From an uncultured Bacilli bacterium (GTDB lineage Bacteria > Bacillota_I > Bacilli_A > RF39 > UBA660), in assembly GCA_947626595.1 (NCBI GenBank), contig CANQST010000002.1:9885-73884 (forward strand): a stretch of 64,000 nt of DNA. The letters are read 5' to 3'. A program made the translations under genes and the position numbers. Under the pieces are notes generated by a model. That model saw nothing but the letters and a program-made list of their open reading frames with translations. It searched no databases and was not told the DNA's origin. Positions 4,697 through 47,673 of the stretch are shown here, one piece after another; the first letter of the stretch is position 1; the number at the start of each line of letters is the position of its first letter.

Positions 4697-4716
4697 AAAA
4701 ATGATAGGTGATTGAA

Positions 4717-6723: not shown

Positions 6724-6895
6724 AAAATAAATGAAAACTCTAATTTTTCGCAAATAATAAATATGAGGAACTAATTTTATGTAAAATTGATGTAAATGGT
6801 TGAGAAGATATTTATTATAATTTGCATAAATTGTTAAGAATATGTTATTATTAGTAAGTAGTGAGACATAAAATATTTACGTGAGGAAGATTTTT

Positions 6896-7393
6896 ATGAA
6901 ATATGATAATGAAGAGTTTTTTGATATTATAAAGCCTATCATTGGAAATAGCGAATTTCAAAAATTAAAGAATATAAAACATCATGGTATAACAAGATAT
7001 GATCATTGTTTGAGAGTTGCTTATTTTTCTTATAAGGTTACTAAGGCTTTAAAGTTAGATTATATAGAAGTAACTGAGGCTGCTTTATTACATGACTTTT
7101 TCTTTGATGAAGCAGATAGTGAAGATAGTTTAAAGATTTTAAAGAACCATCCAAATATTGCGGTAGAAAATGCTAAGAAGTATTTCTTCTTAACTGATAA
7201 GCAACAAGATATAATAGAAAAGCATATGTTTCCAATTGGCTTAAAACCACCACTTTATTTGGAAAGTTGGGTTGTTGATATAGTAGACGATGTTGCGGCT
7301 ATTTATGAGAAGACTAAATCAACAAAAAAAGAAATACAGGCTGCGATTACATTTTTAATGCTTATTGTTATTAATTTTATCAAGTATCGTTAA
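6896..7393 (+). CDS. HD-domain phosphohydrolase-like protein
   Basis: HHGITRYDHCLRVA....LLHDFF is an H...HD...D metal-binding pattern. RBS GAGGAAG precedes ATG 6896. Confidence 0.55.
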   Translation: MKYDNEEFFDIIKPIIGNSEFQKLKNIKHHGITRYDHCLRVAYFSYKVTKALKLDYIEVTEAALLHDFFFDEADSEDSLKILKNHPNIAVENAKKYFFLTDKQQDIIEKHMFPIGLKPPLYLESWVVDIVDDVAAIYEKTKSTKKEIQAAITFLMLIVINFIKYR

Positions 7394-7401
7394 AAACAAA
7401 A

Positions 7402-7431
7402 AATGTTGTAATATTTCATTACAACATTTTT
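7402..7431. terminator. bidirectional terminator
   Basis: ATGTTGTAAT-atttc-ATTACAACAT hairpin followed by TTTT. Confidence 0.55.
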
Positions 7432-8701
7432 ATACTTTTAGAGAACCTATTGGTACAACGTATATTCCATCTTCTCTTTGATATGCATATTCGCCTTTTG
7501 CTGTTAGTATCATTAGAAAAGTTGGATTATTCATTTTTTTAGTATCTATTTTGTCTTTTAATTTTAATAAGTTTTCAGCAGCTTCATTTATTAATTTATC
7601 GCCACCTAGTTTAATTTCAATTAAACCATATTTTCCATCTCTTAAGTGAATAACGGCATCACATTCTAAATCCAAAGCATCTTTGTAGTGATAGACATTA
7701 CCATTTATGGCTTCAGCATAAACTCTTAAATCTCTTATACATAGTGTTTCAAAGATTAGACCAAAAGTGTTTAAATCATTTATTAAATCGTTAGGTCCAA
7801 TTCCTAGTGTTGCCGTTGCGATGGATGGATCAACGAAGTATCTTGTTTCTGATGTTCTTATTGCGGTTTTACTTCTTAGGTTAGGGTTCCAAGCTGGGGC
7901 ATCTTCAATGACAAATAATTTTTTAAGGGCATTTATGTAGGACAATACTGTATCAGCATCTAAAGAAAATAAGTCGTTATTTATCATATCTTTTCTTATT
8001 GTTTCAGTAGAGGCTTGAGTTCCGGTATTTCTGGCATAACTTTTCATTAAATTTTTAACTCGTTCAGGGTTTCTTGTTGTATTATCTACATTTGATGCAT
8101 CTGATTTTATAATACCATAACAATAATCGAATGGTTCTTCTAAAGCAATATCTTTTTCTAGAAAAATACTTCTTGGCCAACCACCTCTACAACAAAGATA
8201 TGCAATATCTTCTAGTGATAGGTTGCTGGTACCTTTTATTTTTGCTTTGTTTTCAAATAAATCAGTAAGACTTACTGTACCAGTTGACTCACCAGACTCA
8301 TATAAACTCATTGGTCTCATAGTTAACCAAGCAAAACGGCCAGTTCCGGTATGTGTCACTTCGTCCATATTGCCTGGAACTGAAGAACCTGTTAATATGA
8401 ATTGCCCTTCTTTTCCACGGTGGTCTACTTCAAATCTTACGGCATCCCATAATTTGGTTGCGATTTGCCACTCGTCAATAAGTCTTGGTGTTTCTCCCTC
8501 TAATAAAATAGAAGGATTTAAATCAGCTAGTATCAGGTTTTGCTCTTTATCTTCAGGCTTACTCATATAAAGAATACTTTTAGAAATTTGTTCAGCTGTT
8601 GTTGTTTTGCCACACCATTTTGGTCCTTGGATTAAAACAGCTCCTTTTCCTTTTAATTTTTTTTCTAATAAACTATCGATAATTCTCTTTCTATATTCCA
8701 T
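7430..8701 (-). CDS. AAA+ ATPase, DUF4143-type (ATP-binding protein)
   Basis: Walker A GPKWCGKTT. PMSLYESGESTG and FVDPSIA are motifs shared with the paralog at 37200. RBS AAGGAGG precedes ATG (complement of 8699-8701). The track ORF begins 51 nt further upstream. Confidence 0.7.
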   Translation of the reverse strand: MEYRKRIIDSLLEKKLKGKGAVLIQGPKWCGKTTTAEQISKSILYMSKPEDKEQNLILADLNPSILLEGETPRLIDEWQIATKLWDAVRFEVDHRGKEGQFILTGSSVPGNMDEVTHTGTGRFAWLTMRPMSLYESGESTGTVSLTDLFENKAKIKGTSNLSLEDIAYLCCRGGWPRSIFLEKDIALEEPFDYCYGIIKSDASNVDNTTRNPERVKNLMKSYARNTGTQASTETIRKDMINNDLFSLDADTVLSYINALKKLFVIEDAPAWNPNLRSKTAIRTSETRYFVDPSIATATLGIGPNDLINDLNTFGLIFETLCIRDLRVYAEAINGNVYHYKDALDLECDAVIHLRDGKYGLIEIKLGGDKLINEAAENLLKLKDKIDTKKMNNPTFLMILTAKGEYAYQREDGIYVVPIGSLKV

Positions 8702-8758
8702 ATAAATGCCTCCTTTTGTTAGAATTATACCATTAATATACATATAAATCAATATATT

Positions 8759-13810: not shown

Positions 13811-15177
13811 AAATAAAAGAAAATATTAATAAGTTTATTTTTAGGGGGTATGATATAAGAGGTAAGGTGCCTGAAGAGTTAGACGAAGATACGGCTTATA
13901 CTATTGGTCTTGGATTTGGTTCTTATATAAAAAGATTAAATAAAAAAGTATGTATAGTGGGACATGATAATAGAGTAAGTAGTCCTATGCTTTATAATGC
14001 TTTAGTTAAAGGAATAATTGAGACGGGGATTGATGTTTATTCTTTAGGACTTTGTACAACACCAATGTATTATTATGCTTGTATAAAGTTAAATATTTTT
14101 AGTGGAGTAATGGTTACAGCCTCACATAATCCTAAAGATGATAATGGTTTTAAATTTGCTTTTAATGAAAGTGGTAATTGTAAAGGAAAAGAAATTACTG
14201 ATTTTTTAGATTTTATTTTAAAAGGAGATTTTGAAAAGGGACAAGGTTTCATTGAAGAAGTTGATATAAAGGAAGATTATTTTAATTTATTTAGAAATAA
14301 TTTCTCTTTTGGTAAGAGATTAAAAGTAGTAATAGACCCAGGTAACGGAACGACTAGTATTATTGCGAAAGATTTATATAGTATGTTTCCAATAGATTTG
14401 ATTAGTATTAATGATGTTAGTGATGGAACTTTTCCTAATCACCATCCTGATCCTTGTGTTGAAGAAAACTTGGAGCAATTAAAAAAGAAAGTTTTAGAAG
14501 AGAAGGCTGATATTGGTTTGGCTTTTGATGGTGATGGTGATAGATGTGGAGTTGTTTCTAATAAGGGGAAGTTTATTCCTACTGATAAAGTAATGATAAT
14601 TATTATTAGAGATATTATTAATAAGGTTGAGAGAAAAGAATTTTTATATGATGTAAAGTGTTCTAAAAGTTTAAGTGATGAAATAGAAAAATTAGGTGGT
14701 AAAGGTGTTTGTTACAGGACAGGAAATTCTTATACTAAAGCTAAGGTAAGGGATGCTGATTTACCTTTTGGAGGAGAACTTTCTGGACATGTTTATTTTA
14801 GAGATAAGTGGCCTGGATTTGATAGTGGACTTTATGCTGGGCTTAGAATTTTAGAGATATTATCTAATACTGATAAGAGTTTAGAGGAGTTATTAGATGG
14901 AATAAATGAGTATTATTCAACAGACGAGATAAAAATAGAAAGTCCTGATAGTAAGAAGTTCCAAGTAATAGAAAAAGTAAAGGAATATGCTTTAAGCAAA
15001 AATTATAAATTACTGGATATTGATGGAGTTAAGGTGTTGTTTGAAGATGGCTGGGCTTTAGTTAGAGCAAGTAATACAGGACCAAATATAACGGTAAGAT
15101 TTGAAGCTAGGACGAAAGAAAGATTGAAAGAAATACAGGAAGAATTTAGTAATATAGTTAATCAATATAATGCTTGA
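13807..15177 (+). CDS. phosphomannomutase/phosphoglucomutase-family phosphohexomutase
   Basis: GVMVTASHNPKDDNGFK active-site loop (TASHNP type, not the SASHNP of GlmM). GDGDR metal loop. 456 aa. Confidence 0.8.
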   Translation: MKIKENINKFIFRGYDIRGKVPEELDEDTAYTIGLGFGSYIKRLNKKVCIVGHDNRVSSPMLYNALVKGIIETGIDVYSLGLCTTPMYYYACIKLNIFSGVMVTASHNPKDDNGFKFAFNESGNCKGKEITDFLDFILKGDFEKGQGFIEEVDIKEDYFNLFRNNFSFGKRLKVVIDPGNGTTSIIAKDLYSMFPIDLISINDVSDGTFPNHHPDPCVEENLEQLKKKVLEEKADIGLAFDGDGDRCGVVSNKGKFIPTDKVMIIIIRDIINKVERKEFLYDVKCSKSLSDEIEKLGGKGVCYRTGNSYTKAKVRDADLPFGGELSGHVYFRDKWPGFDSGLYAGLRILEILSNTDKSLEELLDGINEYYSTDEIKIESPDSKKFQVIEKVKEYALSKNYKLLDIDGVKVLFEDGWALVRASNTGPNITVRFEARTKERLKEIQEEFSNIVNQYNA

Positions 15178-15226
15178 CTTTAGGGTTTCTACTCTTTATA
15201 ATAAAAGGCTAGAAAAGAGGGAAATT

Positions 15227-15937
15227 ATGTATTGTTTAAGAGATGTCATTTTTGGCTTAAGAAATGAATATTTAGAAAATGAAAAGAGGTTACAAGCATT
15301 AAAAAAATTTTTAGTAGTAGATAGGAGCAAGGTAAAAGATTTTGATGTTAGAACTGTTTTGAATGAAGATGTTATAAGAGTAATTGTCGCTATTGAAGAA
15401 AAACAGAGTTTTATTAGAAGATTTTTAAAGGAGCAAGATACTTCTTTAGAAGTAAGGAAGGGTGCCGATAATAGATATGGTATTCAACCTAATAAGTATT
15501 TACTACAAGTGATTGAGGCTTATCAGAGAGTGTTTGATAGGAAGGTTAGGGAAATAAAGAGTAGTGATACAGTTTATAATATCGGATTGTATAGGAAAGC
15601 TTATTTAGAAAATTCTCTTTCTAAGAGTTTAGAGATTAATCCTAACTTTACTTCTTTTACAGTAATGGATGATAGTACTTATACTACTTGTATGTACTTG
15701 CCAAAGGAAGATAGTATTTCTTTAAAGACTAATCGTGGGGTTATTGATAAGGATTTTTGTTTAGAGTTTTTGGATGAGAAAATTTCTGAGGAGGAAATAC
15801 CTTTATATAATAGGATTATAATTGATAAGTGTGAGAAGAAAGATGTATGTGTTCATATGGATGGTGTTAAGGAGAAGGTAAAACTTTTAGTAAGAGAAGA
15901 CGATGAGGGGTATTATTTAAGAAAGAAGAGAAAATAG
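15227..15937 (+). CDS. hypothetical protein
   Basis: 236-aa ORF. RBS AGAGGGAAAT precedes ATG 15227. Translationally coupled to the next gene. Confidence 0.5.
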   Translation: MYCLRDVIFGLRNEYLENEKRLQALKKFLVVDRSKVKDFDVRTVLNEDVIRVIVAIEEKQSFIRRFLKEQDTSLEVRKGADNRYGIQPNKYLLQVIEAYQRVFDRKVREIKSSDTVYNIGLYRKAYLENSLSKSLEINPNFTSFTVMDDSTYTTCMYLPKEDSISLKTNRGVIDKDFCLEFLDEKISEEEIPLYNRIIIDKCEKKDVCVHMDGVKEKVKLLVREDDEGYYLRKKRK

Positions 15938-15938
15938 T

Positions 15939-16382
15939 ATGGATAAGTTGTCAATAAGTTATAGTGTAGGAAAAGATAAGCCCCATTTAGCGAAATATGC
16001 GAATTGTGATGTAGGAAAGCTAAGTGATTTAAAGATACCTAATGAAGTTAAGGTGGCTTATCTATCGGTTACGCATTATAATGGGCATACTATTAGGAAT
16101 ATTGATACTTATATTTATATAGTTGGTAAAGTAGAGGATTGTCGTAATGTTTTAGGAGATAAGGGTAATTATAGATTGCTGAATACTAAGGAGTTTATCG
16201 ATATCTGTTTAGAAAATAATGGCAAAATGGTAGTCTGTGATGGAGAAGATAGTAAGAACGATGTCTTTCCTATGACAGAGTTTACTAGATGCTTTTCAAC
16301 TAGTGAGGAATTAAGTAATGGAGTAGTAGAATTTACTAAGAAGTTTTTAGAAGATAAGGGAAAGGTATATTTAAAGAGTTAA
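15939..16382 (+). CDS. hypothetical protein
   Basis: 147-aa ORF. Its start lies 2 nt after the preceding stop. Confidence 0.5.
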   Translation: MDKLSISYSVGKDKPHLAKYANCDVGKLSDLKIPNEVKVAYLSVTHYNGHTIRNIDTYIYIVGKVEDCRNVLGDKGNYRLLNTKEFIDICLENNGKMVVCDGEDSKNDVFPMTEFTRCFSTSEELSNGVVEFTKKFLEDKGKVYLKS

Positions 16383-18115
16383 ATGCTTTTCCTTTTTTTA
16401 TAATCTCTGTAGAATTCTCTGCAGGAATGTAGGTGATTGATGTATCTTTATTTTCAGCAACAGATACCATTTTCCCCAAGTGGGGAAAATGGTCTAATAC
16501 GTTGATATTACTACAAATGACAAGAATGCTTTTGACTTTATATCTTTATAAATTAAGGATTTTATTTAAAAATTTTTTAGTTGTTTTATAGATTTGTTTT
16601 ATGATCTCTGCAGAGATATTGTAGAGTTTTGTGCAGTATTTATGAGCATTTGATACAGCCTATCAAATACCATTTTCCCCACTTGGGGAAAATGGTCTAA
16701 TACGTTGGTATTATTACAAATGATAAGAGTGTTTTTGACTTTATGACTTTATAAATTAAGGATTTTATTTAGAAATTTTTTAGTTGTTTTATCAATCTGT
16801 TTTATAATCTCTGCAGAGATGCTGCAGAGTTTTGTGCAGGAATGTAAGCAGTTGATGTATCTTTATTTTCAGCACCAAATACCATTTTTCCGACGTCGGA
16901 AAAATGGTCTAATACGTTGATATTACTACAAATAATAAGAATGCTTTTAACTTTATATCTTTATAAATTAAGAACTATATTTAAGTCCTTTTACTGATTT
17001 AATTTATAGTCTCTGCAGAATTTTCTACAGAAAAATGGAAAACTCTGCAGAGATATTGTAGAGTTTTGAACAGTATTTATGAGCATTTGATGCAGCCTAT
17101 CAAATACCATTTTTCCCAAGTGGGAAAAATGGTCTAATACGTTGATATTACTACAAATTCAGAAATATTCTTGACTTTATATTTTTATGAATTATAAAGC
17201 CTTATTTAAGTTCTTTTATCAATTTGATTTATAGTCTCTACAGAATTCTCTGCAGAGATGCTGCAGAATTTTGTGCAGGAATGTAGGTATTTGATGTATT
17301 TTTATTTTTAGCAACAGATACCATTTTGCCGACGTCGGAAAAATGGTCTAATGCGTTGATATTACTACAAATTCAGAAATATTCTTGATTTTATATTTTT
17401 ATAAATTATAAAGCCTTATTTAAGTTTTTTTATCAATTTTATTTATAATTTCTGCAGAATTCTCTGCAAAGATGCTGCAGAATTTTGTGCAGGAATGTAG
17501 GTATTTGATGTATCTTTATTTTTAGAAGCAAATACCATTTTCCCCACTTGGGGAAAATGGTCTAATATGTTGATATTACTAAAAATAATAAGAATGCTTT
17601 TTACTTTATATCTTTATGAATTAAGAACCATATTTAAGGTCTTTTACTACTTTAATTTATAGTTTCTGCAGAAGAACTGTTAAACTCTGTAGAGATACTG
17701 CAAAGTTTTGTGCGGTAATATAAGTATTTGATGTATCTTTATTTTTAGAAGTAAATACCATTTTTCCGACGTCGGAAAAATGGTCTAATACATTGATATT
17801 ACTACAAATAATAAGAATGCTTTTGACTTTATATCTTTATAAATTAAGGATTTTTATTTATAAATTTTTTAATTGTTTTATAGAGTTGTTTTATGATTTT
17901 TGCATAATTCTCTGCAAAAAATGGAAAACTCTGCAGAGATACTGCAGAGCTTTGTGCAGTAATGTAGGTATTTGATGTATCTTTATTTTAGAAATAAATA
18001 CCATTTTTCCGACGTCGGCAAAATGGTCTAATACGTTGATATTACTATAAATTCAAGAATATTATTTGGTTTATACTTTTATAAATTATGAAAATTTCTT
18101 TAAGACTTTTTTAGT
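16383..18115. repeat. tandem array of 8 repeat units of roughly 203-233 bp, each containing a 26-bp perfect palindrome
   Basis: Palindromes start at 16466, 16669, 16881, 17106, 17320, 17534, 17767 and 18000. Every unit also contains TCTAATACGTTGATATTACTACAAAT, TTGACTTTATATCTTTATAAATTA-like and CTCTGCAGAG....CTGCAGAG segments. Confidence 0.9.
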
Positions 18116-18943
18116 TTAATTTTTAATCATAACATTTTTTTCTTTTTCTAATTCTTTAAGACTTTTTTTAGGTGTAGGTAAATTTTCAGGCATTGTTCCA
18201 CCATTTTTATTAATAACTTCTCTAATGTTTTTTCCGATATTGTAATGTGCCGCATTTGCTTTACTTTCTGTTTTAATATTTTCTCTTTTTAATTTTGACT
18301 CTGTTTGTGTAATTCGAAATAAATTTGCAGCTAGTTCTTCACTACCCATATTATCTAAAATATCTTCTCTATATCTTAGTTCTTTTCTTTTAGCAATATC
18401 GTCTGCTGTTTCGCCATTATATAAACCTTTATAACCGAAATTATGAAATTTATCAAAATTTTTAACACCTGAGTTTTTTGCTGTTTGATTTAATGAATAA
18501 TTACCTTTTTTAGTTAATTTTCTTTGATAAAGTCTCTTTTCATCTTCAGAAAGTTCACTATATTCTTTTTCGATTATTTCTTGTTTCCTAGTTTGTACTG
18601 CAAAATATGTTTGAGCTAAAGCAATGACTTGTTTTCTATTATCTCCATTTTGAGCAATTAAATAGCAAGCATATCTTGATAATTTGTAATCTTTTTGTTT
18701 TCTTTTGGAATTTGAACCTATAGATACTATTTTGTCAACGTCGATAAAATGGTCATCAATGTTATTATTGCTTAAATTACAAGTGTTTTTTGCTTTATCG
18801 ATAACACCTATAAAGTTTTTCCATTTTGAGTACTCAAGCGCTATCATTAACTCACGTGCAAGCCAGTATTCTTGATTATATTCATCAAGATGTTTGATAT
18901 TTTCAAAATTTGTTTTGCTGTATTCTTTTAGCGTATCTTCCAT
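18116..18943 (-). CDS. dinD: DNA-damage-inducible protein D homolog
   Basis: Strong recollected similarity to E. coli DinD along the whole length: EYWLAREL, LSRYACYLIAQNGD, QTYFAVQTRKQE, DEKRLYQRKL, HNFGYKGLYNGE, MGSEELAANLFRITQTESKLKRE, GGTMPENLPTP. RBS AAGGAG precedes ATG (complement of 18941-43), giving 275 aa against 274 aa for E. coli DinD. Confidence 0.85.
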   Translation of the reverse strand: MEDTLKEYSKTNFENIKHLDEYNQEYWLARELMIALEYSKWKNFIGVIDKAKNTCNLSNNNIDDHFIDVDKIVSIGSNSKRKQKDYKLSRYACYLIAQNGDNRKQVIALAQTYFAVQTRKQEIIEKEYSELSEDEKRLYQRKLTKKGNYSLNQTAKNSGVKNFDKFHNFGYKGLYNGETADDIAKRKELRYREDILDNMGSEELAANLFRITQTESKLKRENIKTESKANAAHYNIGKNIREVINKNGGTMPENLPTPKKSLKELEKEKNVMIKN

Positions 18944-19420
18944 TTTTACATCTCCTTTTTTTGTTTTTTTCTTTCTTATTAATATTGTACCAAATAATTC
19001 TTGATTATGCAAATGACTTTAGTTACTCATTTGTTCCTGTTGCTTTTTCTTTATTTATTACATTATTTTGTAATTTATGTAGAATTATCTATAGAAAAAC
19101 TGAAAAAAACTCTGCAGAGATACTGTAGAGTTTTGTGCAATAATATAAGTATTTGATGTATCTTTATTTTTAAAAGCAAATACCATTTTTCCGACGTCGG
19201 AAAAATGGTCCAATGCATTGATATTACTACAAATAGTAAGAATGCTTTTGACTTTATATCTTTATAAGTTTATAGTCTCTGAAGAAAAACTGTTAAACTT
19301 TGCAGAGATACTGCAAAGTTCTGTGCAGGAATGTAAGTACTTGATGTAGCCTATCAAATACCATTTTTCCCACTTGGGAAAAATGGTCTAATACGTTGAT
19401 ATTATTAGATATAATTAATT
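18944..19420. repeat. continuation of the tandem array (2 more units) on the far side of dinD
   Basis: Palindromes at 19182 and 19370. 19060-19180 aligns with the CTCTGCAGAG....TTTGATGTATCTTTATTTT part of the unit. Confidence 0.85.
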
Positions 19421-19582
19421 ATTGAAACTTGTTATTTCTGTTAGAGTGCTATAGCTAATTAACTGTAAAACATTATGTAAAATAAATTTAGCTTTATTGA
19501 AAAATAATGAAAATTTTGTTATATTCTAGATAGAAGAAAAACTACACATGGTTGTAGTTTTTCAAGTGTCTTGGAGGAGTAT

Positions 19583-22931: not shown

Positions 22932-25559
22932 GTGGGAAATTTGAAAAGACTAAATTTAATTTTACCGATGGTTATAATTGGGATAATTTTTTCTATGAGT
23001 ATTGGATTTTCCGCATTAAATAAGGGTTTGAGCATATCTGGAGAAGTAAATTATAGACCAGAAAATGACATTAGAATTACAAAAATCACTCCAGAAAAAG
23101 TGGAAAATACGACGTTAGAATACTTCGATTTTTCTAAAAAAGAGGTAAAATTGGCCTTTAAAAAAAATTTAAATTTATGTGTAAAGTTTACACTCGAAAT
23201 CACTAATTTTAGCAATTCTGAGATGGGAATTTTAAAAATTAAGGGGTTAGATGGGGGTGTAATTGATGGTTATACCCTTGGTGAAAAGTTAGTTGGAGAG
23301 GATGGAAATAGTAAAGCTGGGATGATTAAGAAATTTAGTATTACTTATAATTCTAGTGAAGAAGATGTTAAAAGTTTACTATTAAAGTTTGATTTTGAGC
23401 CTGTATATAAGATTAATTATGAAGGGTTTGATGATACTAGTAGTTTTAAAAAAGAGATATTAAGAAATGATAAGTTAGTTCAAAACTTTGGAGATAATCC
23501 TCCTAAGAAAGTAGAAGTTACTATGAATGATGAAGTAATAACACCTAATTATAGTAATGGAGTACTTACAATAGATAATGTAACTGGTGATATAAAGATA
23601 AAGCCTGTGTTCTATGATGAAAGTGGAGCAAATGAACCAGTACTTAGTGATAACATGATACCAGTATATTATGATGAGAATAATAAAGTATGGAAGAAAG
23701 CTGATAAATATAATAGAAATAATAATTGGTGTGATTATAATAATCAAAAGTGGTGTAATGCAGTTACGGTAAAGAATGTTGTAAGAGATTTATCAGGAAA
23801 TGGTAATGATGGAGAAATACATGGAGCAGTTATAGAAAATGGTGAGGCATATTTTGATGGTAAAGATGATTATATAGATACAGGTATAAAAGGCCATGAA
23901 TTCAATCAAATTACTTACATAGCTAAGTTTACTTTGCTTTCATATCAAAATATAAATCAAAGTATTATAGCAAATACTGATGGTAGTGGGAGTGCAATTT
24001 ATATTCCTGGGAAAAATAATAAACTTTTTTTTACATTATATGATGGTAGTAAAAATGGTTATAATTACATTTATGGTGATACTATAATTGAGTTAAATAA
24101 AGAATATTTAGTAGTTGCGGTGTATGATGGTAAAAATATGAAAATATTTATTGATGGAGAGCAAGTTGCAGAAGGTGCAGGCCCAGTCAACTTTAAGCAA
24201 TCTCTTTCTAAAACACTATTAGGAGGTGATCCATTAGGTGAGTCTGATGCTATTGGCGAGCCTTCAAATATTAAAATAAATGATGTATTAATATTTGATA
24301 AAGCATTAACTTTAGAAGAAATAAAAACTCATTATAGTAATAAAGTTACTTTAGGAGAAACTAAACCATTGATTTATTATGATTTTGAAGAGACAAATAG
24401 AGAAATATATAGAAATGGTAATATCGGTACAACAATACCAATGGAAGAAATAAATACCATGTGGGTATGGATTCCAAGATATTCATATACAATAAAACAA
24501 CCATATGGTAAAGCAAGCGCTGATAATCAAAGCCCCTCACAAGAATTACCTGGAGAAATAGACGTTAAGTTTATTCCAGCAAGTCAAAATGATAGTGAAG
24601 GATTGGCACAATATACAGGTAGTGATACAAGTGGATGGTTTACCCCACCTGGATTTAAATTTGGAGATAAAGATTTATCAGGAATATGGATAGGAAAGTT
24701 TGAAACCGGTTATTTGGGTGCAAGTACAGAAAATGAAGCCCAACATGATACACAAGAGTCAAATAAGGTTATTATTAAGCCAGATGTGATAAGTTGGCTT
24801 GGAATAAGAGTTTCAACAATAGAATTGGTTTCTATGGGAATTATAAAAGAAAAAAATCCTTTTGGATTTAATCAAAGCATATATGATAGTCATGCAATAA
24901 AAAATAGTGAATGGGCTTTGATGTCATATTTAACTCAAAGTAGATATGGAAAATATGGAAATACTTTATATGTGGGAGATAACAAACAAACTTACATGAA
25001 TAATTATATTGGAAATCTCTGTGGATGTTCAGCTGGGATACCACATACTAATGAGGCTTCGTTATGTGCTTATAGATATAATGATTTAACAAATATTAGT
25101 TCTGGAGCTGGGTATGTTGGAGCAGGAGCGTCAACAACGGGCAATATTTATGGGATTTACGATGTCAATGGCGGATCTTTAGAAAGTGTAATGGGTGTTT
25201 ATGATAATCCTGAAAGAAGAAGTGGTTATTCAACATCAGATAATTCGGGTTATACAGGATTACTAGACGATGGTAAAATATTTGAAGGTAGAGAATGGCA
25301 AGATGATAAATACTATGATTTTTATAGCACAGATAATTGGATGACTGCATGTGATGGAAACCCATGTAAAGGTCATGCTTTGAATGAAACGAATGCATGG
25401 TACAATAATCCAGTGAATATATTATGGGGTAGATATCCATGGAATTGGAGAAGCGGTTATTGGAAGGATAAAAATGGTGGAGTTTTCATGCATAATAATT
25501 GGGATGGCAGTGCTAATGCTGAAGCTTCATTTCGCATCGTCTTAACTCCAAATAATTAA
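22932..25559 (+). CDS. surface paralog-family protein with inserted LamG/ConA-like lectin domain and C-terminal FGE/C-type-lectin-fold-like domain (N-type III, C-type A)
   Basis: LSGNGNDGEIHGAV...YFDGKDDYID...VVAVYDGKNMKIFIDGEQV...INDVLIFDKALTLEEI is a Laminin_G_3 pattern. The C-domain has the MWVWIPRYSYTIK ... FRIVLTPNN blocks. Start is GTG 22932 or TTG 22941, the latter following RBS AGGTGG. Confidence 0.8.
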   Translation: MGNLKRLNLILPMVIIGIIFSMSIGFSALNKGLSISGEVNYRPENDIRITKITPEKVENTTLEYFDFSKKEVKLAFKKNLNLCVKFTLEITNFSNSEMGILKIKGLDGGVIDGYTLGEKLVGEDGNSKAGMIKKFSITYNSSEEDVKSLLLKFDFEPVYKINYEGFDDTSSFKKEILRNDKLVQNFGDNPPKKVEVTMNDEVITPNYSNGVLTIDNVTGDIKIKPVFYDESGANEPVLSDNMIPVYYDENNKVWKKADKYNRNNNWCDYNNQKWCNAVTVKNVVRDLSGNGNDGEIHGAVIENGEAYFDGKDDYIDTGIKGHEFNQITYIAKFTLLSYQNINQSIIANTDGSGSAIYIPGKNNKLFFTLYDGSKNGYNYIYGDTIIELNKEYLVVAVYDGKNMKIFIDGEQVAEGAGPVNFKQSLSKTLLGGDPLGESDAIGEPSNIKINDVLIFDKALTLEEIKTHYSNKVTLGETKPLIYYDFEETNREIYRNGNIGTTIPMEEINTMWVWIPRYSYTIKQPYGKASADNQSPSQELPGEIDVKFIPASQNDSEGLAQYTGSDTSGWFTPPGFKFGDKDLSGIWIGKFETGYLGASTENEAQHDTQESNKVIIKPDVISWLGIRVSTIELVSMGIIKEKNPFGFNQSIYDSHAIKNSEWALMSYLTQSRYGKYGNTLYVGDNKQTYMNNYIGNLCGCSAGIPHTNEASLCAYRYNDLTNISSGAGYVGAGASTTGNIYGIYDVNGGSLESVMGVYDNPERRSGYSTSDNSGYTGLLDDGKIFEGREWQDDKYYDFYSTDNWMTACDGNPCKGHALNETNAWYNNPVNILWGRYPWNWRSGYWKDKNGGVFMHNNWDGSANAEASFRIVLTPNN

Positions 25560-25627
25560 TTATTTAAACAATTAAGATGGTATTAATAAAATTTATATGT
25601 AAATAATAATTGTAGGTGAAGTGTATT

Positions 25628-28228
25628 ATGAATAGTAGAAAAACTAAATTAATTATAATAGTTGCCTTGTGTTTGGTAGTAATATGTTTAACAGTGGGTT
25701 ATGCAATTCTTTCTGCTAACCTTAATATAAGTGGTCAGGCCTCAGTTAATGGTGGTAGATGGGATGTTGTGTTCTTAAAGAATGATGCTAAAGTAGTAGG
25801 AGAAGGTAGAGCTAAGTGTAACCTTGGTACTATAGAAAATTCTTCTATTAAGGATTTAACTGTTTCTTTAGAAGAAGCAGGTGATAGTTGTACTTTTACT
25901 ATTCCAATACAAAATACGGGTACTGTAGAAGCTTATTTAACAGATGTTGTTGGTAAAGATAATTCTTTAACTTTTAATTCTACATCAGTATCAGATATAG
26001 AAAAAATAAAACCTTTAGTTACATATGAAGTAAAGTATGGAGATATGCAGATAAATAGTCAAACAGATTTTAGTAAGATACCAGTATTAAAAGCAGATGC
26101 TAAGGAGACAGTAACATTAAAAGCTATGATAAATGCAGATGATAGTATTGGAAAAACTAATCCTATAACTATAGGAGGATTTGATAGAACTTTTGTGTTT
26201 AATTCTAATTCATTAGAAGAAGGTTCAACAGATAGTGTAGTACCATTAGGAAGTCCAAATAAGCCAGTATTAAATGGAGATATGATACCAGTATATTATG
26301 AGAAAACAAGTGATACAACAGGAAATTGGGTTAAAGCTGATACAACGAATAGTGATAATAACTGGTATGATTATGATAGTCAAAAGTGGGCTAATGCTGT
26401 AACAGTAAAGAATACTGTAAAAGATTTGTCAGGTAACAATAATGATGGAGTAGTTCATGGAGCAGTAGTAGGAAATGGTGAAGCTAGTTTTGATGGAGAA
26501 GACGATTATATAGATGTTGGGTTAGCTGGTCATGATTTTAGGCAAATTACGTATGTGGTGAAATTTACTTTACATCATTATATTTCCGATCATCATCAGA
26601 TTATTATTGGTAATACTGAAAATGCTGGCGCTTCAATTCAGTTGAGTTCAGATGATAACAAAAGGCTTCTATTTATGGTGCTTGATAATAATACAGGCAC
26701 TTATCTCAAAGTTAGCAGCGATGCCAGTTTAATTGATTTAGAAAAAGAGTATATTGTTGTTGGCACTTGTGATGGTGGTTCAATGAAATTATATCTTAAT
26801 GGTACTTTGGTGGCTGAAAATAAAAAATCTATTAATATAAGAAATTCGATTTCTAGAGTATTGATAGGAGCAGATCCTTCTGATAATTTTGGCTTTGATT
26901 CACCATCAAATATTTCAGTAAATGATGGCTTAGTATTTGATAAGTCATTAACAGAAGAAGAAATAAAGCAACACTATAGTAATGAAGTTACTTTAGGAGA
27001 AACAAAGCCATTAGTCTATTACAATTTTGAAGATGCTAATAGAGAATATTATAAAGAAGCAAAAGCTGGAACAACAATATCAATGGATGATATAAACACA
27101 ATGTGGGTATGGATACCAAGATACTCATATACAATTAAACAACCTTATGGTAAAGCAAGTTCTGAGAATGAAAATCCAACTCAAGCTTTACCAGGAGAAA
27201 TAGATGTTAAGTTTATACCATCAACTATAACAGAAACTGGTTCAGCTCAGTATACAGAAGCTAGTCCTAGAAATTGGAGAACGAACGCTGCCTTTGATTT
27301 TGATAATAAAAAGCGAGCAGGAATATGGGTGGCAAAGTTTGAGCCTACAGGTACTTTGGGTTCTGCTTGTGTAAATGATACTTGTGATATAAATACTGTA
27401 ACGATAAAACCAAGTACTGCTTCAATAAGATTTCAAAAGGTAAGTAGTTTCTTCTATATGGCAAGAAGTATGCAAAAAGTTGATAATCCATATGGTTTTA
27501 GTTCTACAAGTGGTGATTTACACATGATTAAAAATGACGAATGGGGAGCAGTAGCTTATCTATCTCAAAGTAAGTATGGAAAATATGGTAATTCAGCTTA
27601 TACTGGAGCTAATAAAGAAATTTATCAAAATAAATCAAGTGATTATATAACTGGAAATAGTAATGGTACACCAAGCATTAGTACAATAAATACACAGTAT
27701 ACATATAATAATCTAACAAATTTAGGAACTGGTGCTGGTCAAGCAGGACCGGGAGCAAGTACAACAGGAACAATATATGGAGTATACGATATGTCGGGTG
27801 GTGCTTATGAATATGTAATGGCAGCAATAGCATATGATAATGATGATTTAGTTCCAATGTCAGGTAATAATAGCACAGGTACTAGTAATTCTGGATTTAA
27901 TGGAAAGTTTAATGATGGTACTGATTATAATGCTGGCATACCTTTTCCGAATATTAAGTATTATACTATGTATAAAACGCAAAATCCAAATTCTAGTGAT
28001 TTTACTAATTCTTTATCAGCGTGTGGTAATAGCGTTTGCTATGGATGTGCTTTGTCAGAAACAAAATCATGGTATGATGATGTTGCCCTTTTTGTATCTA
28101 GTTACTATCCATGGGTTCAGCGTGGTGGTTATTATGGTGATAAACTAGATGCTGGTATATTCGATGCTGGTTATGGTCATGGAGGTTCTTATAATTCTTA
28201 TTCCTGTCGATTAGCGTTAGTATCATAA
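25628..28228 (+). CDS. surface paralog-family protein with LamG-like insert and C-terminal FGE/C-type-lectin-fold-like domain (N-type IV, C-type B)
   Basis: LSGNNNDGVVHGAV...SFDGEDDYIDVG...YIVVGTCDGGSMKLYLNGTLV...VNDGLVFDKSLTEEEI. The C-domain is of type B (KPSTASIRFQKVSSFFYMARSMQKVDNPYGF..., end ...CRLALVS). RBS AGGTGA precedes ATG 25628. Confidence 0.8.
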   Translation: MNSRKTKLIIIVALCLVVICLTVGYAILSANLNISGQASVNGGRWDVVFLKNDAKVVGEGRAKCNLGTIENSSIKDLTVSLEEAGDSCTFTIPIQNTGTVEAYLTDVVGKDNSLTFNSTSVSDIEKIKPLVTYEVKYGDMQINSQTDFSKIPVLKADAKETVTLKAMINADDSIGKTNPITIGGFDRTFVFNSNSLEEGSTDSVVPLGSPNKPVLNGDMIPVYYEKTSDTTGNWVKADTTNSDNNWYDYDSQKWANAVTVKNTVKDLSGNNNDGVVHGAVVGNGEASFDGEDDYIDVGLAGHDFRQITYVVKFTLHHYISDHHQIIIGNTENAGASIQLSSDDNKRLLFMVLDNNTGTYLKVSSDASLIDLEKEYIVVGTCDGGSMKLYLNGTLVAENKKSINIRNSISRVLIGADPSDNFGFDSPSNISVNDGLVFDKSLTEEEIKQHYSNEVTLGETKPLVYYNFEDANREYYKEAKAGTTISMDDINTMWVWIPRYSYTIKQPYGKASSENENPTQALPGEIDVKFIPSTITETGSAQYTEASPRNWRTNAAFDFDNKKRAGIWVAKFEPTGTLGSACVNDTCDINTVTIKPSTASIRFQKVSSFFYMARSMQKVDNPYGFSSTSGDLHMIKNDEWGAVAYLSQSKYGKYGNSAYTGANKEIYQNKSSDYITGNSNGTPSISTINTQYTYNNLTNLGTGAGQAGPGASTTGTIYGVYDMSGGAYEYVMAAIAYDNDDLVPMSGNNSTGTSNSGFNGKFNDGTDYNAGIPFPNIKYYTMYKTQNPNSSDFTNSLSACGNSVCYGCALSETKSWYDDVALFVSSYYPWVQRGGYYGDKLDAGIFDAGYGHGGSYNSYSCRLALVS

Positions 28229-28266: not shown

Positions 28267-30255
28267 ATGAATAATAGAAAACAAAAATATATTATAATTG
28301 GTGCATTATGTTTAGTGGTAACTTTACTATCTATAGGTTATGCTGTTTTGTCAGCTAACTTAAGAATTGATGGAACTGCTAAAGTATCAGGTGAGAAATG
28401 GAGTGTTGAGTTTGTAGAAAAACAAGCTAAAACTATTCCAAAAGGAAAAGCTACTTGTGATATAGGTACAATTCAAAATACTTCAGTAACAAACTTATCA
28501 GCTAAAGTAAAAGTACCAGGAGATAGTTGTACATTTACTATACCAGTAGAAAATACTGGAACTTTAGATGCCAGTTTAGTTGATGTAACTAATAGAGGTT
28601 TATCTTTATCATATGATGGTAATCCTGGTGATATAGATATAATAAGTAGTTATATAACTTACGATGTTAGATATGGTAGTACACAAATAAATAATGAAAC
28701 TAATTTTGAAGAAATTGATATTTTAGAACCAGGAGAAAGAGAGACAATAACTTTAAAAGTAGAGTTTAAAGAAGAAGCTACACAAATATCAAATGCAGTT
28801 GTAACAATAACAGGCTTAGATAGAACATTTAATTTTGAAAATAAGTTAGGTTCAAGTAGTACTAGTCCAACACCAGAAACTGTACCAGTTTACCATGATA
28901 CTAGTGGAGCTAATCAACCTGTTTTGAGTGATAATATGATACCAGTAGTATATGACGAAACAAGAAAAGAATGGGTAAAGCAAGATTTAGATAAAAGTTA
29001 TGATTATTCACAACAAGTATGGGCAAATGCTGTAACTGTAGTTGAAGATGGAACACAAACAAGAAGTTATTATAAGAAAGCAAAGGCTGGAACAGTAATA
29101 TCAATGAATGATATAAATACGATGTGGGTATGGATACCAAGATACTCATATACTATTAAGAGTGAAGATGGTGGAGATAACTACTTCGGAAAGGCAAGTT
29201 CTGATAATCTAAATCCATCACAGGCTCTACCAGGAGAGATAGATGTTAAATTTATTCCAGTAAGTGAAAATGATAGTGAAGGCTCAGCTCAATATACAGA
29301 AGGGGAAGCAAGTGGATGGTTTACGCCACCAGGATTTAAGTTTGGAGAGAAAGATTTATCGGGAGTGTGGATGGGAAAGTTTGAAACGGGTAATATAGGG
29401 GATTGCCAAGCGACAACTGGAGATGTAAATAATGGATGTGATTTAGAAACGTTAGTTCCACAAATTAAGCCAAATTTAACAAGTTTGAGGGGTATAAGAG
29501 TATCAACATTGGAATTAGTTTCTATAGGTTTAACTAAAGGTGGAAATATCTATGGTTTTGATAATACATATGATAGTCATGCTTCCAAAAATACAGAATG
29601 GGCATTAATTAGTTATTTAACTCAAAGTAAATATGGAAAGTATGGAAATTATTTATACAAAGGAGAAAATAAACAAGTGTATATGAATAATTATAGTGAA
29701 TATATGACAGGATGTTCTTCTGGAATACCAACAGCTGAAAGTTCAGATAAATGTACTTACGAGTATGACAATTTAACTTCTAATGGAGAAGGTACCGGCT
29801 ATTTGGGAGCGGGTGCTTCAACAACAGGAACAATATATGGGATATATGATGCAAATGGTGGAAGTTGGGAATATGTAATGTCTGTTTTTGCAAATCCAAG
29901 CAAATATTCTGGAAATACGCTAGAGTTAAATTCTGGATATAAAGGACTATTAACAGATGAAATTGAGTTTAGCGATAATGCTCGTTCTTGGTTAAGTGAT
30001 AAGTATTATGATTTTTATGCATCAGATGATGTAAAGACAGCGTGTAATGATACTTTATGCAAAGGTTATGCATTAAATGAGACGTCTGGATGGTATGGTG
30101 ATAGAAAGAATATGGTTCACAATATTTATCCTTGGATGGATCGTGGTGGATACCAACGAAAAAATGATGGGACATCTGGGGTGTTTGCATATATTAATGG
30201 AGAAGGAAGCTCTTCAAATTACCGTTCTTTCCGTATCGTCCTAACCCCACAATAA
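28267..30255 (+). CDS. surface paralog-family protein (N-type I, C-type A)
   Basis: The first ~300 aa are ~95% identical to the 52049 paralog. The C-domain carries the conserved blocks and ends ...FRIVLTPQ. Confidence 0.8.
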   Translation: MNNRKQKYIIIGALCLVVTLLSIGYAVLSANLRIDGTAKVSGEKWSVEFVEKQAKTIPKGKATCDIGTIQNTSVTNLSAKVKVPGDSCTFTIPVENTGTLDASLVDVTNRGLSLSYDGNPGDIDIISSYITYDVRYGSTQINNETNFEEIDILEPGERETITLKVEFKEEATQISNAVVTITGLDRTFNFENKLGSSSTSPTPETVPVYHDTSGANQPVLSDNMIPVVYDETRKEWVKQDLDKSYDYSQQVWANAVTVVEDGTQTRSYYKKAKAGTVISMNDINTMWVWIPRYSYTIKSEDGGDNYFGKASSDNLNPSQALPGEIDVKFIPVSENDSEGSAQYTEGEASGWFTPPGFKFGEKDLSGVWMGKFETGNIGDCQATTGDVNNGCDLETLVPQIKPNLTSLRGIRVSTLELVSIGLTKGGNIYGFDNTYDSHASKNTEWALISYLTQSKYGKYGNYLYKGENKQVYMNNYSEYMTGCSSGIPTAESSDKCTYEYDNLTSNGEGTGYLGAGASTTGTIYGIYDANGGSWEYVMSVFANPSKYSGNTLELNSGYKGLLTDEIEFSDNARSWLSDKYYDFYASDDVKTACNDTLCKGYALNETSGWYGDRKNMVHNIYPWMDRGGYQRKNDGTSGVFAYINGEGSSSNYRSFRIVLTPQ

Positions 30256-37132: not shown

Positions 37133-37199
37133 AAAAATTACTATAAATATGGTATTATTTTATTGGTGATGATTAGTGAATTTTAATGAAAAGGAATAT

Positions 37200-38450
37200 A
37201 TGCCTAGGTTAATTGATAAAAACATAGATAGATATTTAGAAGTTTTTGGAGCTGTTTCTGTTGAGGGACCAAAATGGTGTGGTAAGACTTGGGCATCTTT
37301 GAGGCACGCTAAAAGTGTTGCTTATTTGGATGATGAAAGTACTAAACAAAGAGCTTTATTAGATTTGGAATTGATTTTAAATGATCAACAACCAGAACTT
37401 ATTGATGAGTGGCATTTAATTCCGGAAATTTGGGATAGAGTTAGAAGAAAGTGTGATTTAGATAGTAAAAAAGGAAAATATATTTTGACTTGTTCTACGC
37501 AACTTGATGATGAAAGAAGAAAACACATTTATCATTCTGGTGCTGGTAGAATTGGTAAACTTAAAATGTATCCTATGAGTTTGTATGAGTCTGGTGAGTC
37601 TACAGGAGATGCATCTTTGATGGATATGTTTAATGGTAAACAAAAAAATAAAAATGTTAAAATTCCTAGTTTAGAAGAAATAGCTAATTTAATAGTAAGA
37701 GGTGGATGGCCTGATAATATTAAAGTTTCTAAAGATAAAATCAATATAATTCCCAAGAGTTATATTGCCTCAGTCCTTGATAAAGATATTGATGATGGTA
37801 AAAAACGTGATAAAGAAAAAATGAATATGCTTATTAAATCACTCGCACGTAATGAGTCTACCATTGTTAGTAATCAGACGTTATTAACTGATATAGGTAC
37901 TTATAATAATAACGAAGAATTAATAGAAAGCAGAGTAACACTAAGTGATTATTTAGATGTTTTAGATAGACTTCACTTTACTGAAAATCAAAGTGCTTAT
38001 AGTGAGAATTATCGTTCAAGAGAAAGACTTGGCAAAACACCTAAAAGACATTTAATAGACCCATCTTTAGCTTGTGCCGCTTTAAATTTAACTAGTGATA
38101 AATTACTTAGTGATTTGAGAACTTTTGGTTTCTTGTTTGAGTCTTTAGTAGAAAGAGATTTAAGAATTTATATAGAATATTTAGATGGAAATATTTATCA
38201 TTTTAGAGATAATGTAAGTGGATTAGAAGTTGATAGTATACTGGAATTTCCGGGAGGAGATTATGCCGCAGTTGAAATAAAGTTAGGTTTTAACGCTATT
38301 GAAGAAGCTAAGGCTAATTTAGTAAAGTTTGCGAGTAATATGACTAAAAAACCTAAATTTATGTGTATTATTACTGGTAATTTTGATGCTGTAGCAAAAG
38401 ATCCAGATACGGGAATATATATTGTTCCTATAACAGCTTTAAAACCATAG
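37200..38450 (+). CDS. AAA+ ATPase, DUF4143-type (paralog of 7430-8701)
   Basis: GPKWCGKTW Walker A. PMSLYESGESTG and IDPSLA are shared with the other copy. Confidence 0.7.
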   Translation: MPRLIDKNIDRYLEVFGAVSVEGPKWCGKTWASLRHAKSVAYLDDESTKQRALLDLELILNDQQPELIDEWHLIPEIWDRVRRKCDLDSKKGKYILTCSTQLDDERRKHIYHSGAGRIGKLKMYPMSLYESGESTGDASLMDMFNGKQKNKNVKIPSLEEIANLIVRGGWPDNIKVSKDKINIIPKSYIASVLDKDIDDGKKRDKEKMNMLIKSLARNESTIVSNQTLLTDIGTYNNNEELIESRVTLSDYLDVLDRLHFTENQSAYSENYRSRERLGKTPKRHLIDPSLACAALNLTSDKLLSDLRTFGFLFESLVERDLRIYIEYLDGNIYHFRDNVSGLEVDSILEFPGGDYAAVEIKLGFNAIEEAKANLVKFASNMTKKPKFMCIITGNFDAVAKDPDTGIYIVPITALKP

Positions 38451-47642: not shown

Positions 47643-47673
47643 TACAATTTATATAGAATTGGTGGTTAGAAAT

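Follow-up and report, generated by a model that had tools for sequence, protein, structure and literature searches.

Positions 16383 to 19412 of the stretch of DNA analysed here (the window: 64,000 nucleotides of contig CANQST010000002.1 from an uncultured Bacilli bacterium, numbered from its first letter) are occupied by a tandem array of structured repeat units surrounding an intact gene of the dinD family. Eight units are followed by the gene (18116–18943, minus strand) and then by two further units, and each unit begins with a palindrome of 28 bp. The units are copies of a fragment of a dinD gene, in the same orientation as the resident gene, and the palindrome is a dyad found at codons 64–73 of nearly every DinD/antirepressor (Bro-N) gene. 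The dyad is a more important result than the array.

Layout of the array

The palindrome (ACCATTTTnCCnnnnnnGGnAAAATGGT, 28 bp) is present in ten copies where none would be expected in shuffled sequence, and neither it nor the core has a copy outside the array within the window. The 25 nt adjoining it (CTAATACGTTGATATTACTACAAAT) also occur ten times, with no more than three mismatches each. Tandem Repeats Finder assigns the region a period of 214 bp (7.7 copies, 76% matches), as well as a higher-order period of 437 bp. A preliminary description of this DNA, made from the letters alone, had proposed a tandem array of ~210-bp units with a fixed order of modules and two alternative tail modules. 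The array is real, as shown by the period, the ten palindromes and the alignment of the units over their whole length, and the module order, including both tail modules, agrees with a multiple alignment of the units. Eight of the ten unit starts had been placed correctly; the other two were off by 10 bp (17757 and 19360, given as 17767 and 19370). A perfect palindrome had been ascribed to every unit, which is true of eight, while units 5 and 8 have one mismatch each. The region had also been taken for an unbroken, gene-free array of 3 kb, and this is refuted by a minus-strand gene for a protein of 275 aa that separates unit 8 from unit 9, the palindromes of these two units standing 1182 bp apart.

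The array opens with a partial unit (16383–16465) directly after the stop codon of a gene encoding a 147-aa protein. This fragment consists of CTGCAG repeats and a tail module only, and aligns with the 3' part of the full units. All ten units lie on the minus strand. In unit 1 (16466–16668) the palindrome at 16466–16493 is centred on CCCC-AAGT-GGGG, and in unit 2 (16669–16880, palindrome 16669–16696) the loop is ACTT, the mirror image of that of unit 1. The palindrome of unit 3 (16881–17105) has TCCG-ACGT-CGGA at its centre (16881–16908), and that of unit 4 (17106–17319) has TCCC-AAGT-GGGA (17106–17133). The single mismatch of unit 5 (17320–17533, palindrome 17320–17347) is G..A, and its mirror image, T..C, is found in unit 8 (18000–18115, palindrome 18000–18027), which abuts the dinD stop codon. 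Between these two lie unit 6 (17534–17756, palindrome 17534–17561) and unit 7 (17757–17999, palindrome 17757–17784). On the far side of the gene, the dinD upstream region (19014–19181, minus strand) ends in the tail of a unit, with CTGCAG repeats, a hairpin and a tail module. It is followed by unit 9 (19182–19359, palindrome 19182–19209) and by unit 10 (19360–19412), of which only the core is present, namely the palindrome (19360–19387) and its 25-nt flank.

The second conserved module of the unit is a stem of CTCTGCAG and CTGCAGAG between runs of A and T, and resembles a bidirectional terminator. In unit 1 (16606–16626) this hairpin has an 8-bp stem and is terminator-like on both strands. It recurs in unit 2 (16809–16829), unit 3 (17043–17063), unit 4 (17248–17268, inside a run of 12-bp sub-repeats at 17235–17278), unit 5 (17462–17482), unit 6 (17685–17705) and unit 7 (17929–17949), in the region upstream of dinD (19110–19130), and in unit 9 (19298–19318), where a C-G pair has been replaced by T-A in a compensatory change. 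The CTGCAG motifs within units are spaced 11–12 bp apart, and the array holds 14 of the 19 CTGCAG sites in the window.

It is extremely improbable that this arrangement is an assembly artefact, such as a collapsed or chimeric repeat. Short-read assemblies do fail to cross the array: in contigs that two sequencing runs gave for the same strain, L006 and L007 stop in unit 1 and L008 begins in unit 9 (L-numbers label the compared loci on public, metagenome and viral contigs). However, these contigs break exactly at the two edges of the array, which is how assemblers behave at a genuine repeat and argues against chimeric assembly, and both edges are thereby reproduced in independent samples. The units also diverge from one another by ~22%, with their modules in an ordered mosaic, and the embedded DinD protein is 100% identical to one (P0001) present in public assemblies.

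Derivation of the units from dinD

The resident gene encodes an intact protein of 275 aa that matches the NCBIfam family PRK11525, DNA damage-inducible protein D, with an E-value of 3.7e-102. It has an N-terminal Bro-N domain (Pfam) and matches the candidate defence gene PDC-S13 of PADLOC, and its nearest relatives are in metagenome-assembled genomes of Clostridia. The gene has a copy of the family palindrome of its own (18726–18753, minus strand), which encodes DHFIDVDKIV and is degenerate, with 11 of 14 positions complementary. A promoter-like site for dinD (TTTGCA, an 18-nt spacer and TG-TACAAT), predicted by a consensus scan only, lies at 18984–19013 on the same strand. In a separate PADLOC model, PDLC03083 (717 positions, type I restriction specificity subunit), the first 267 positions match DinD with an E-value of 7.5e-83, which implies natural fusions of DinD and HsdS.

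When read on the minus strand, all ten units encode (S)NINVLDHFxxxGKMV across the dyad, corresponding to residues 81–96 of a DinD open reading frame (tblastn). Between 48 and 75 nt of each unit are 83–94% identical to dinD of other Clostridia (L002 and L001/L005), whereas identity to the resident gene is only about two thirds (~66% over the 47-nt core). With nhmmer, a model of the unit matches dinD genes over model positions 167–242, with E-values down to 5.6e-13. A hidden Markov model of the DinD protein detects every unit at positions ~55–78, and unit 8 at positions 38–78 (123 nt) with in-frame stops. The match covers only 25–41 codons, interrupted by stops and frameshifts, and the homology to dinD ends exactly at the downstream edge of the palindrome. 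No counterpart of the middle ~140 nt of the unit was found by nhmmer in 2 Mb of dinD loci, where only the palindrome region matched. Past the core, local alignments of whole units to dinD were mostly non-significant relative to shuffles, and the hints of collinear similarity are restricted to an 11-mer, TGGTGCTGAAA, and to GCACAAAA. The units are thus head-to-tail, gene-derived copies with disabling mutations, as in a tandemly amplified pseudogene fragment. The statement in the preliminary description that the region has no coding capacity is correct for the units, but they are relics of coding sequence, and the dinD gene among them was overlooked.

The unit is unevenly conserved, with a column identity of 0.75–0.96 over the palindrome and the next ~55 nt, 0.70–0.86 in the CTGCAG hairpin, and 0.15–0.53 between the two. 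Only 2 of 120 stem pairs in the array's palindromes are broken, two stem positions vary by paired changes, and mirror-image forms are seen in the loops (AAGT and ACTT) as well as in the mismatches of units 5 and 8. This is not the even decay along the unit that neutrality would give, and the dyads of the array are still being maintained.

An intragenic dyad in the dinD family

Single-copy dinD genes on five unrelated contigs have a palindrome at the same codons, and the differences between them are compensatory (e.g. GAT...ATC with a change of Val to Ile, and ACT...AGT with Gly to Ser). For a wider sample, 160 loci were gathered from metagenome and viral contigs by means of the motifs EDILDNM, QTYFAVQ and YREDILD, which lie elsewhere in the protein, so that selection for the palindrome itself was avoided. 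The 30 nt aligned to DinD residues 64–73 were extracted from each locus, giving 129 distinct sequences from loci of 23–70% GC.

The mean number of complementary arm pairs in these 129 genes is 11.2 of 13. This compares with 7.97 (sd 0.10) for the same peptides encoded by codons redrawn according to the usage of each gene, with 8.02 after permutation of the 3' halves among genes, and with 2.6–4.3 for seven further in-frame windows in these genes. Pairs 2–14 are complementary in 74–98% of sequences, the central pair in 33% and the outer pair in 25%, which defines a dyad of 13+2+13. Paired cells make up 89.9% of the total, versus 71.6% in shuffles (a value reached in 0 of 500) and 31–50% with the partners slid. 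Changes on both sides are seen at 12 of 12 stem pairs, compensatory cells number 280 versus 78 in shuffles, and most stem positions show three or four types of base pair. Residues that mirror each other across the dyad have complementary codons: H/M, W/P, C/T, Q/L and D/I, and further V/N, V/D, A/S, A/G, T/S, P/R, P/G and R/T. The sequences share ancestry and the statistics carry no phylogenetic correction, so that the shuffle counts are not probabilities. The conclusion that a dyad is present is robust because it is drawn from many pair types, from the excess at synonymous sites and from the slid controls together. For synonymous-site conservation upstream of the dyad, only 10 gap-free sequences were available.

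A cause of the symmetry at the protein level was rejected on the strength of a structure model and of the codon redraw, which removes much of the excess complementarity. In the AlphaFold model (predicted local distance difference test, pLDDT, 83) residues 64–73 comprise the last part of a short helix and then the first beta-hairpin strand, and the peptide is therefore not itself symmetric. The dyad is kept as a structure and not as a sequence, and compensatory changes drag the encoded residues along. The units of the array share its defining features, with arms of 12–13 bp around a centre of 1–4 nt at the codons for DinD residues 64–73.

Two kinds of palindromic DNA within coding sequence invite comparison. 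The parS site, which lies inside spo0J/parB of Bacillus subtilis, is a palindromic DNA site within the coding sequence of a DNA-binding protein. However, the sequence of parS is itself conserved, a protein that binds it is known, and it is present at several places on the chromosome, whereas the dinD dyad is kept only in its dyad form and is unique in every genome that was checked. The palindromic elements of Rickettsia are in-frame insertions that are translated as part of the protein. They are dispersed, selfish insertions that decay, in contrast to the dinD dyad, which stays at one homologous position and is maintained by compensation.

Breadth of the dyad across bacteria and phages

One of the viral-contig loci is 99.9% identical to dinD of Escherichia coli K-12 and contains the dyad ACCATTTCGAGGA-GA-TCCTCGATATGGT, in which 12 of 13 pairs are complementary. 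The RefSeq record of E. coli dinD has no feature annotated within the gene. Matches to the N-terminal domain of DinD were found in 253 deposited phage records, most of them for antirepressors of Mycobacterium and Gordonia phages. In seven of the eight phage and satellite genes examined, the best palindrome of the gene is at, or overlaps, the homologous place. Examples include CAATTTCCCGGCGCCGGGAAATTG in a Mycobacterium abscessus prophage, as well as dyads in Gordonia phage Sidious, mycobacteriophage OwlsT2W and a cyanophage.

A second and distant Bro-N subfamily, with proteins of ~150–260 aa, is represented by a gene beside dinD in locus L009 (5092–5553) and by relatives in L292, L295, L296 and L297. 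Genes of this subfamily often adjoin XRE-type repressors or RhuM/Fic genes. The best palindrome falls at codons 63–72 in all five of those examined, and the dyads all differ, encoding ELSSITRQL, TVTNCHG, ELATICSQL, VSEKIGH and ELVTNCRQL. Neither Rfam, nor the annotation of E. coli, nor the literature that could be searched on dinD and Bro-N yielded a description of a dyad in dinD or Bro-N genes, and the intragenic dyad appears to be undescribed.

DNA or RNA element

An RNA hairpin formed by one strand should tolerate G-U far better than A-C. Among the non-complementary cells of the gene family there are 56 G-T and 75 A-C, and other mismatches are commoner still. Complementarity extends to within 1–2 nt of the centre, and in the second subfamily the arms of 12 bp enclose a single nucleotide. 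The missing wobble bias, together with pairing closer to the centre than a hairpin can use, favours a dyad that acts at the level of DNA, which is not proven. Neither the dyad nor its half-site occurs a second time in a prophage genome of 50 kb. Being unique there and, outside the array, in the window, the dyad is not one of several operators, and a multi-site phage operator was rejected on this ground.

The array could still encode RNA. Its units might be small RNA genes or a processed precursor, yielding a dyad hairpin RNA that ends at the CTGCAG terminator and serves as a mimic or antisense of dinD-type mRNAs, in the manner of agrA/agrB. Each unit does have a strong 12-bp hairpin as well as a stem resembling a terminator, after which TTTT follows on the plus strand, and terminator-like sites number 12 versus 1.1 expected. 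The folds of the units are far more stable than those of shuffles (z of −6 to −7), and the CTGCAG stem includes some G-U pairs and one compensatory change. However, a search of Rfam 15 with the window, the array and four dinD loci gave nothing at the gathering score beyond tRNA, and chance hits (E-values up to 10). Promoter-like sites are as frequent as expected (20 versus 21.2) and none is conserved across units. The ~66% identity to the resident dinD over the 47-nt core would make for poor antisense pairing, and the mismatches in the gene family show no wobble bias towards one strand. An RNA role of this kind, which the preliminary description had listed in the form of a small RNA array, is thus unlikely. 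The agrA/agrB repeats beside the E. coli SOS gene dinQ are repeated fragments of a damage-inducible gene that adjoin that gene, and to this extent resemble the array. They differ in being two antisense RNA genes with promoters, while the array consists of ten sense-oriented relics with no detectable promoters.

Paired changes might also originate in mutation. Quasipalindrome template-switch mutagenesis copies one arm of an inverted repeat onto the other. Paired changes would result, and loops could be flipped. This is a process of mutation and not an element, however, and leaves unexplained both the complementarity up to the central 1–2 nt and the retention of a single site across phyla.

Exchange and variability at dinD

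The dyad lies in a variable part of the gene. In four lineages, dinD alleles are 96–100% identical elsewhere and only ~45–70% identical in a patch of ~225–400 bp around the dyad. The pairs concerned are E. coli K-12 and the other common E. coli allele, L131/L133, L275/L276 and L139/L001. For E. coli (L291, which is K-12, versus L229) the patch is sharply bounded at −149 and +75 of the dyad block; it measures ~225 bp, lies in the Bro-N domain and is ~55–60% identical, and the remainder of the gene is 97–100% identical. The dyads of L275 and L276 differ by two compensated pairs. These patches show that the Bro-N domain evolves as an exchangeable, fast-changing module. In comparisons of related dinD loci, the points at which segments of high identity end are not concentrated at the dyad. 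The K-12 dinD gene was matched in 2761 of 4714 genomes at only 80–90% overall identity, and there are at least two alleles. A resemblance of DinD residues 63–111 to a TAL effector (PDB 3ugm_A, E-value 1.4e-8) was discarded as probably spurious, a family profile having found nothing.

Two further explanations of the array bear on this variability. One would have the units serve as silent donor cassettes for gene conversion of the hypervariable Bro-N segment, comparable to pilS or vls. The sharp allele patches around the dyad in four lineages are similar in size to the ~214-bp unit, and the units adjoin dinD in the same orientation. However, the match to dinD is limited to 25–41 codons with stops and frameshifts, the near-identical unit cores have little diversity to donate, and the hypervariable patches look like alleles from other taxa, which is what allelic exchange of the ordinary kind would produce. 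The diverse, translatable cassettes of such systems are thus not seen here, and this explanation is very unlikely. The features of a diversity-generating retroelement are likewise missing: the window has no reverse transcriptase, there are ten units, and the differences between them are not restricted to A.

The other explanation is an array of site-specific cassettes joined at an 11-6-11 or 13-2-13 palindrome (similar to dif, lox or serine-recombinase sites), with 'empty' cassettes of 214 bp and one cassette that carries dinD; a variant of it would be tandem insertions of miniature mobile elements. That the homology to dinD stops exactly at the edge of the palindrome would suit this reading, as would the placing of dinD in the 1182-bp interval from one palindrome to the next. 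Units 5 and 8 have the appearance of reciprocal half-site hybrids, the loop is found both ways round, and in one other locus (L139) a lone palindrome with unrelated flanks lies upstream of dinD. Against this, the 64-kb window contains no integrase, transposase or other recombinase, the core motifs of attC are absent, and no further copies were found in the window or in public collections. The breakpoints between dinD alleles are not clustered at the dyad, and the dyad varies too greatly for one recombinase. A cassette array is accordingly quite improbable.

Distribution of the array and comparison with known systems

The array is lineage-specific. A search of 185,579 species genomes with the core pattern returned three true matches, each a single copy inside a dinD gene, and no other array. 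BLAST with the array found no match in 50,697 phage and 72,556 plasmid records, the CTGCAG-hairpin pattern had none in the viral contigs, and a protein search with an open reading frame derived from the unit, aimed at miscalled reading frames of related arrays, was also negative. An extra, free palindrome is present in only 1 of 162 dinD loci. In this locus (L139) a perfect, lone palindrome of the dinD type lies between unrelated flanks at positions 11–40, 52 nt upstream of the dinD start and at the end of the contig. The dinD gene of L139 is nearly identical to that of L001 in its 3' half and different in its 5' half. In L001 itself (6708–7090, dinD of Clostridium sp. 27_14) the 5' half has three in-frame stops that, compared with L005, correspond to changes of GAA to TAA, CAG to TAG and GAA to TAA. 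A prophage integrated in the dinD gene of L001 was considered and ruled out, as the integrase-bearing prophage sits in a tRNA gene 0.8 kb away.

The array also differs from the established classes of repeat. It is not an array of clustered regularly interspaced short palindromic repeats (CRISPR), as the preliminary description had rightly noted in calling it a structured, mosaic, satellite-like array. The sequence between palindromes is itself repeated (76–78% matches at a period of 214) where unique spacers would be expected, and the open reading frames checked in the window match housekeeping genes or nothing, with no cas genes among them. As in attC arrays of integrons, hairpin-forming sites that are recognised by structure more than by sequence bound successive units. 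However, intI and attI are lacking, with no tyrosine recombinase in the window, and nine of the ten units contain no gene. The arms (ACCATTTT.../...AAAATGGT) have neither the extrahelical bases nor the RYYYAAC/GTTRRRY motifs of attC, and eight of the ten dyads are perfect.

The nested hairpins of miniature inverted-repeat transposable elements (MITE) or of the IS200-IS605 type suggested in the preliminary description are not supported, given the origin of the palindrome, which copies a site inside dinD genes, and the lack of a transposase or extra copies in the window. For the related palindrome-associated transposable elements (PATE), repetitive extragenic palindromes (REP) and bacterial interspersed mosaic elements (BIME), no Y1 transposase or REP-associated tyrosine transposase (RAYT) is present in the window, and the hairpin is homologous to a site within dinD in many taxa. 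A partition or replication site, which the preliminary description also suggested, is not supported, given the chromosomal, housekeeping context and the lack of adjoining par or rep genes, the neighbours being the 147-aa open reading frame and helD. The 11–12-bp spacing of the CTGCAG motifs could in principle be the helical phasing of short binding motifs in a partition or iteron array.

The closest parallel in architecture is with the homologous regions (hr) of baculoviruses. These consist of tandem units, each with a palindrome of ~30 bp, as does the array, and are found in genomes rich in bro genes. The products of baculovirus bro (Bro-N) genes bind DNA, and the genes mark regions of rearrangement (PMC2830988). 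The parallel is an analogy only. Unlike the array, hr are dispersed over several loci, where they serve eukaryotic viruses as enhancers and replication origins and are bound by IE-1, and their palindromes are imperfect and conserved in sequence.

Genomic context

The window is ordinary chromosome of low GC content (28%) with strong GC skew. Its genes include holA, yebC, comEA, comEC, recD2, parE/parC, gltX, bacA, zupT and a phosphomannomutase gene, and helD lies immediately to the right of the array. Searches of Pfam and NCBIfam with the open reading frames checked in the window brought up no integrase, transposase, cas gene or reverse transcriptase. Directly to the left of the array are two co-directional genes encoding proteins of 255 aa (15170–15937) and 147 aa (15939–16382), for which Pfam, NCBIfam, PHROGs and PADLOC gave no match. 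Between the array and the start of helD is a hairpin with an 11-bp stem (19536–19563, GAAAAACTACAACCATGTGTAGTTTTTC). It overlaps the helD leader and lies just downstream of a good promoter-like site (19497–19525).

Seven paralogous genes encoding proteins of 650–875 aa are distributed among the housekeeping genes of the window (4708–6723, 22932–25559, 25616–28228, 28267–30255, 43274–45238, 50056–52017 and 52049–54034) and share long DNA repeats of 60–90% identity. Pfam searches with three of the seven gave no match for two and only a Laminin_G_3 domain for the third. Paralogous AAA_14/DUF4143 ATPase genes are found 30 kb apart at 7430–8752 (minus strand) and 37176–38450 (plus strand). A gene at 47659–49530 encodes a protein of 623 aa with an ALK/LTK-type glycine-rich domain (PF12810, E-value 2.8e-25).

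Interpretation

The explanation preferred here is that the array arose by lineage-specific tandem amplification of a dinD pseudogene fragment by way of the dyad and has no dedicated function, and a probability of roughly 0.55 is given to this account as a whole. The dinD origin of the units is near-certain, while the mechanism and the lack of a dedicated function of the array are uncertain. The dyad would be a site prone to forming a hairpin or cruciform, at which misalignment, slippage or unequal exchange between palindrome-bearing copies of dinD could have occurred. A pseudogene fragment and the adjacent terminator hairpin would then have been amplified into an array, with continued reshuffling of modules and flipping of some palindromes. 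Ongoing reshuffling would fit the higher-order period of 437 bp and the mosaic modules. The upkeep of the dyad in genes, whether by selection for structure or by templated correction from arm to arm, would also act in the array. The short units may correspond to the 1182-bp unit that contains dinD, less the promoter and the reading frame, and they resemble such a reduced unit in that, on both sides of the resident gene, the sequence runs on into modules of the unit. The array is probably without a function of its own beyond multiplying the cis element around the resident gene. As an event it is of a known kind, tandem amplification, in which decay has been uneven.

Several observations weigh against this account. 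Conservation is not confined to the palindrome, since the ~55 nt beyond it (75–96%) and the CTGCAG hairpin (70–86%) are both far better kept than the middle of the unit (15–53%). Neutral junk decays evenly, so that some selection or strongly localised gene conversion is needed. The breakpoints between related dinD alleles are not clustered at the palindrome, so that a recombinogenic role for it is conjectural. Its 13-bp arms are also short for breakage induced by a cruciform. Moreover, only ~75–123 nt of the unit are demonstrably derived from dinD, leaving ~90–140 nt for which the match does not account.

The uneven conservation of the unit is the chief reason that a functional reading stays alive. 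The array may be a working, multi-copy cis-element, selected for multiplying the dyad and its flank of 25–55 nt around the resident gene. It would act as a decoy, sink or recruitment platform for a protein or enzyme that recognises the dyad in dinD genes, possibly the Bro-N domain of DinD, and would tune the expression of dinD or local DNA transactions. The palindrome and CTGCAG modules are far better conserved than the rest and paired changes keep the palindromes perfect, while the dyad of the resident dinD is degenerate (11 of 14), as if relieved of its task. The spacing of the CTGCAG motifs by 11–12 bp is about one helical turn, and most of the window's CTGCAG sites are in the array. The hr arrays of baculoviruses, with palindromes of 30 bp, work in this manner, and BRO proteins bind DNA (PMC2830988). 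However, the array occurs in one lineage only and a useful device should recur. The dyads are too diverse between genes for a single conserved binding protein, the dyad and its half-site occur only once in the prophage genome, and a score of 11 of 14 is common in single-copy genes. A working role of this sort is therefore possible but somewhat unlikely. The same tentative standing is given to the broader proposal that the dyad is an ancient, selected, cis-acting DNA element of bacterial and phage Bro-N genes (those for DinD, antirepressors and defence-island proteins), acted on by their own product or by a structure-specific enzyme, of which the array would be the working multi-copy version and the counterpart of hr.

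The array is probably a local curiosity, yet it exposes something general. A gene family thousands strong carries an in-frame palindrome whose symmetry overrides the conservation of the protein, and the family includes the SOS gene dinD of E. coli K-12, antirepressors of mycobacteriophages and other phages, and the candidate defence gene PDC-S13. The origin of the units is also a caution that 'non-coding structured repeats' may be amplified relics of intragenic elements. The dyad is a clear example, from nature, of a nucleotide structure that dictates amino-acid sequence, and its E. coli form offers a testable handle on the cis needs of dinD and of phage antirepressor genes.

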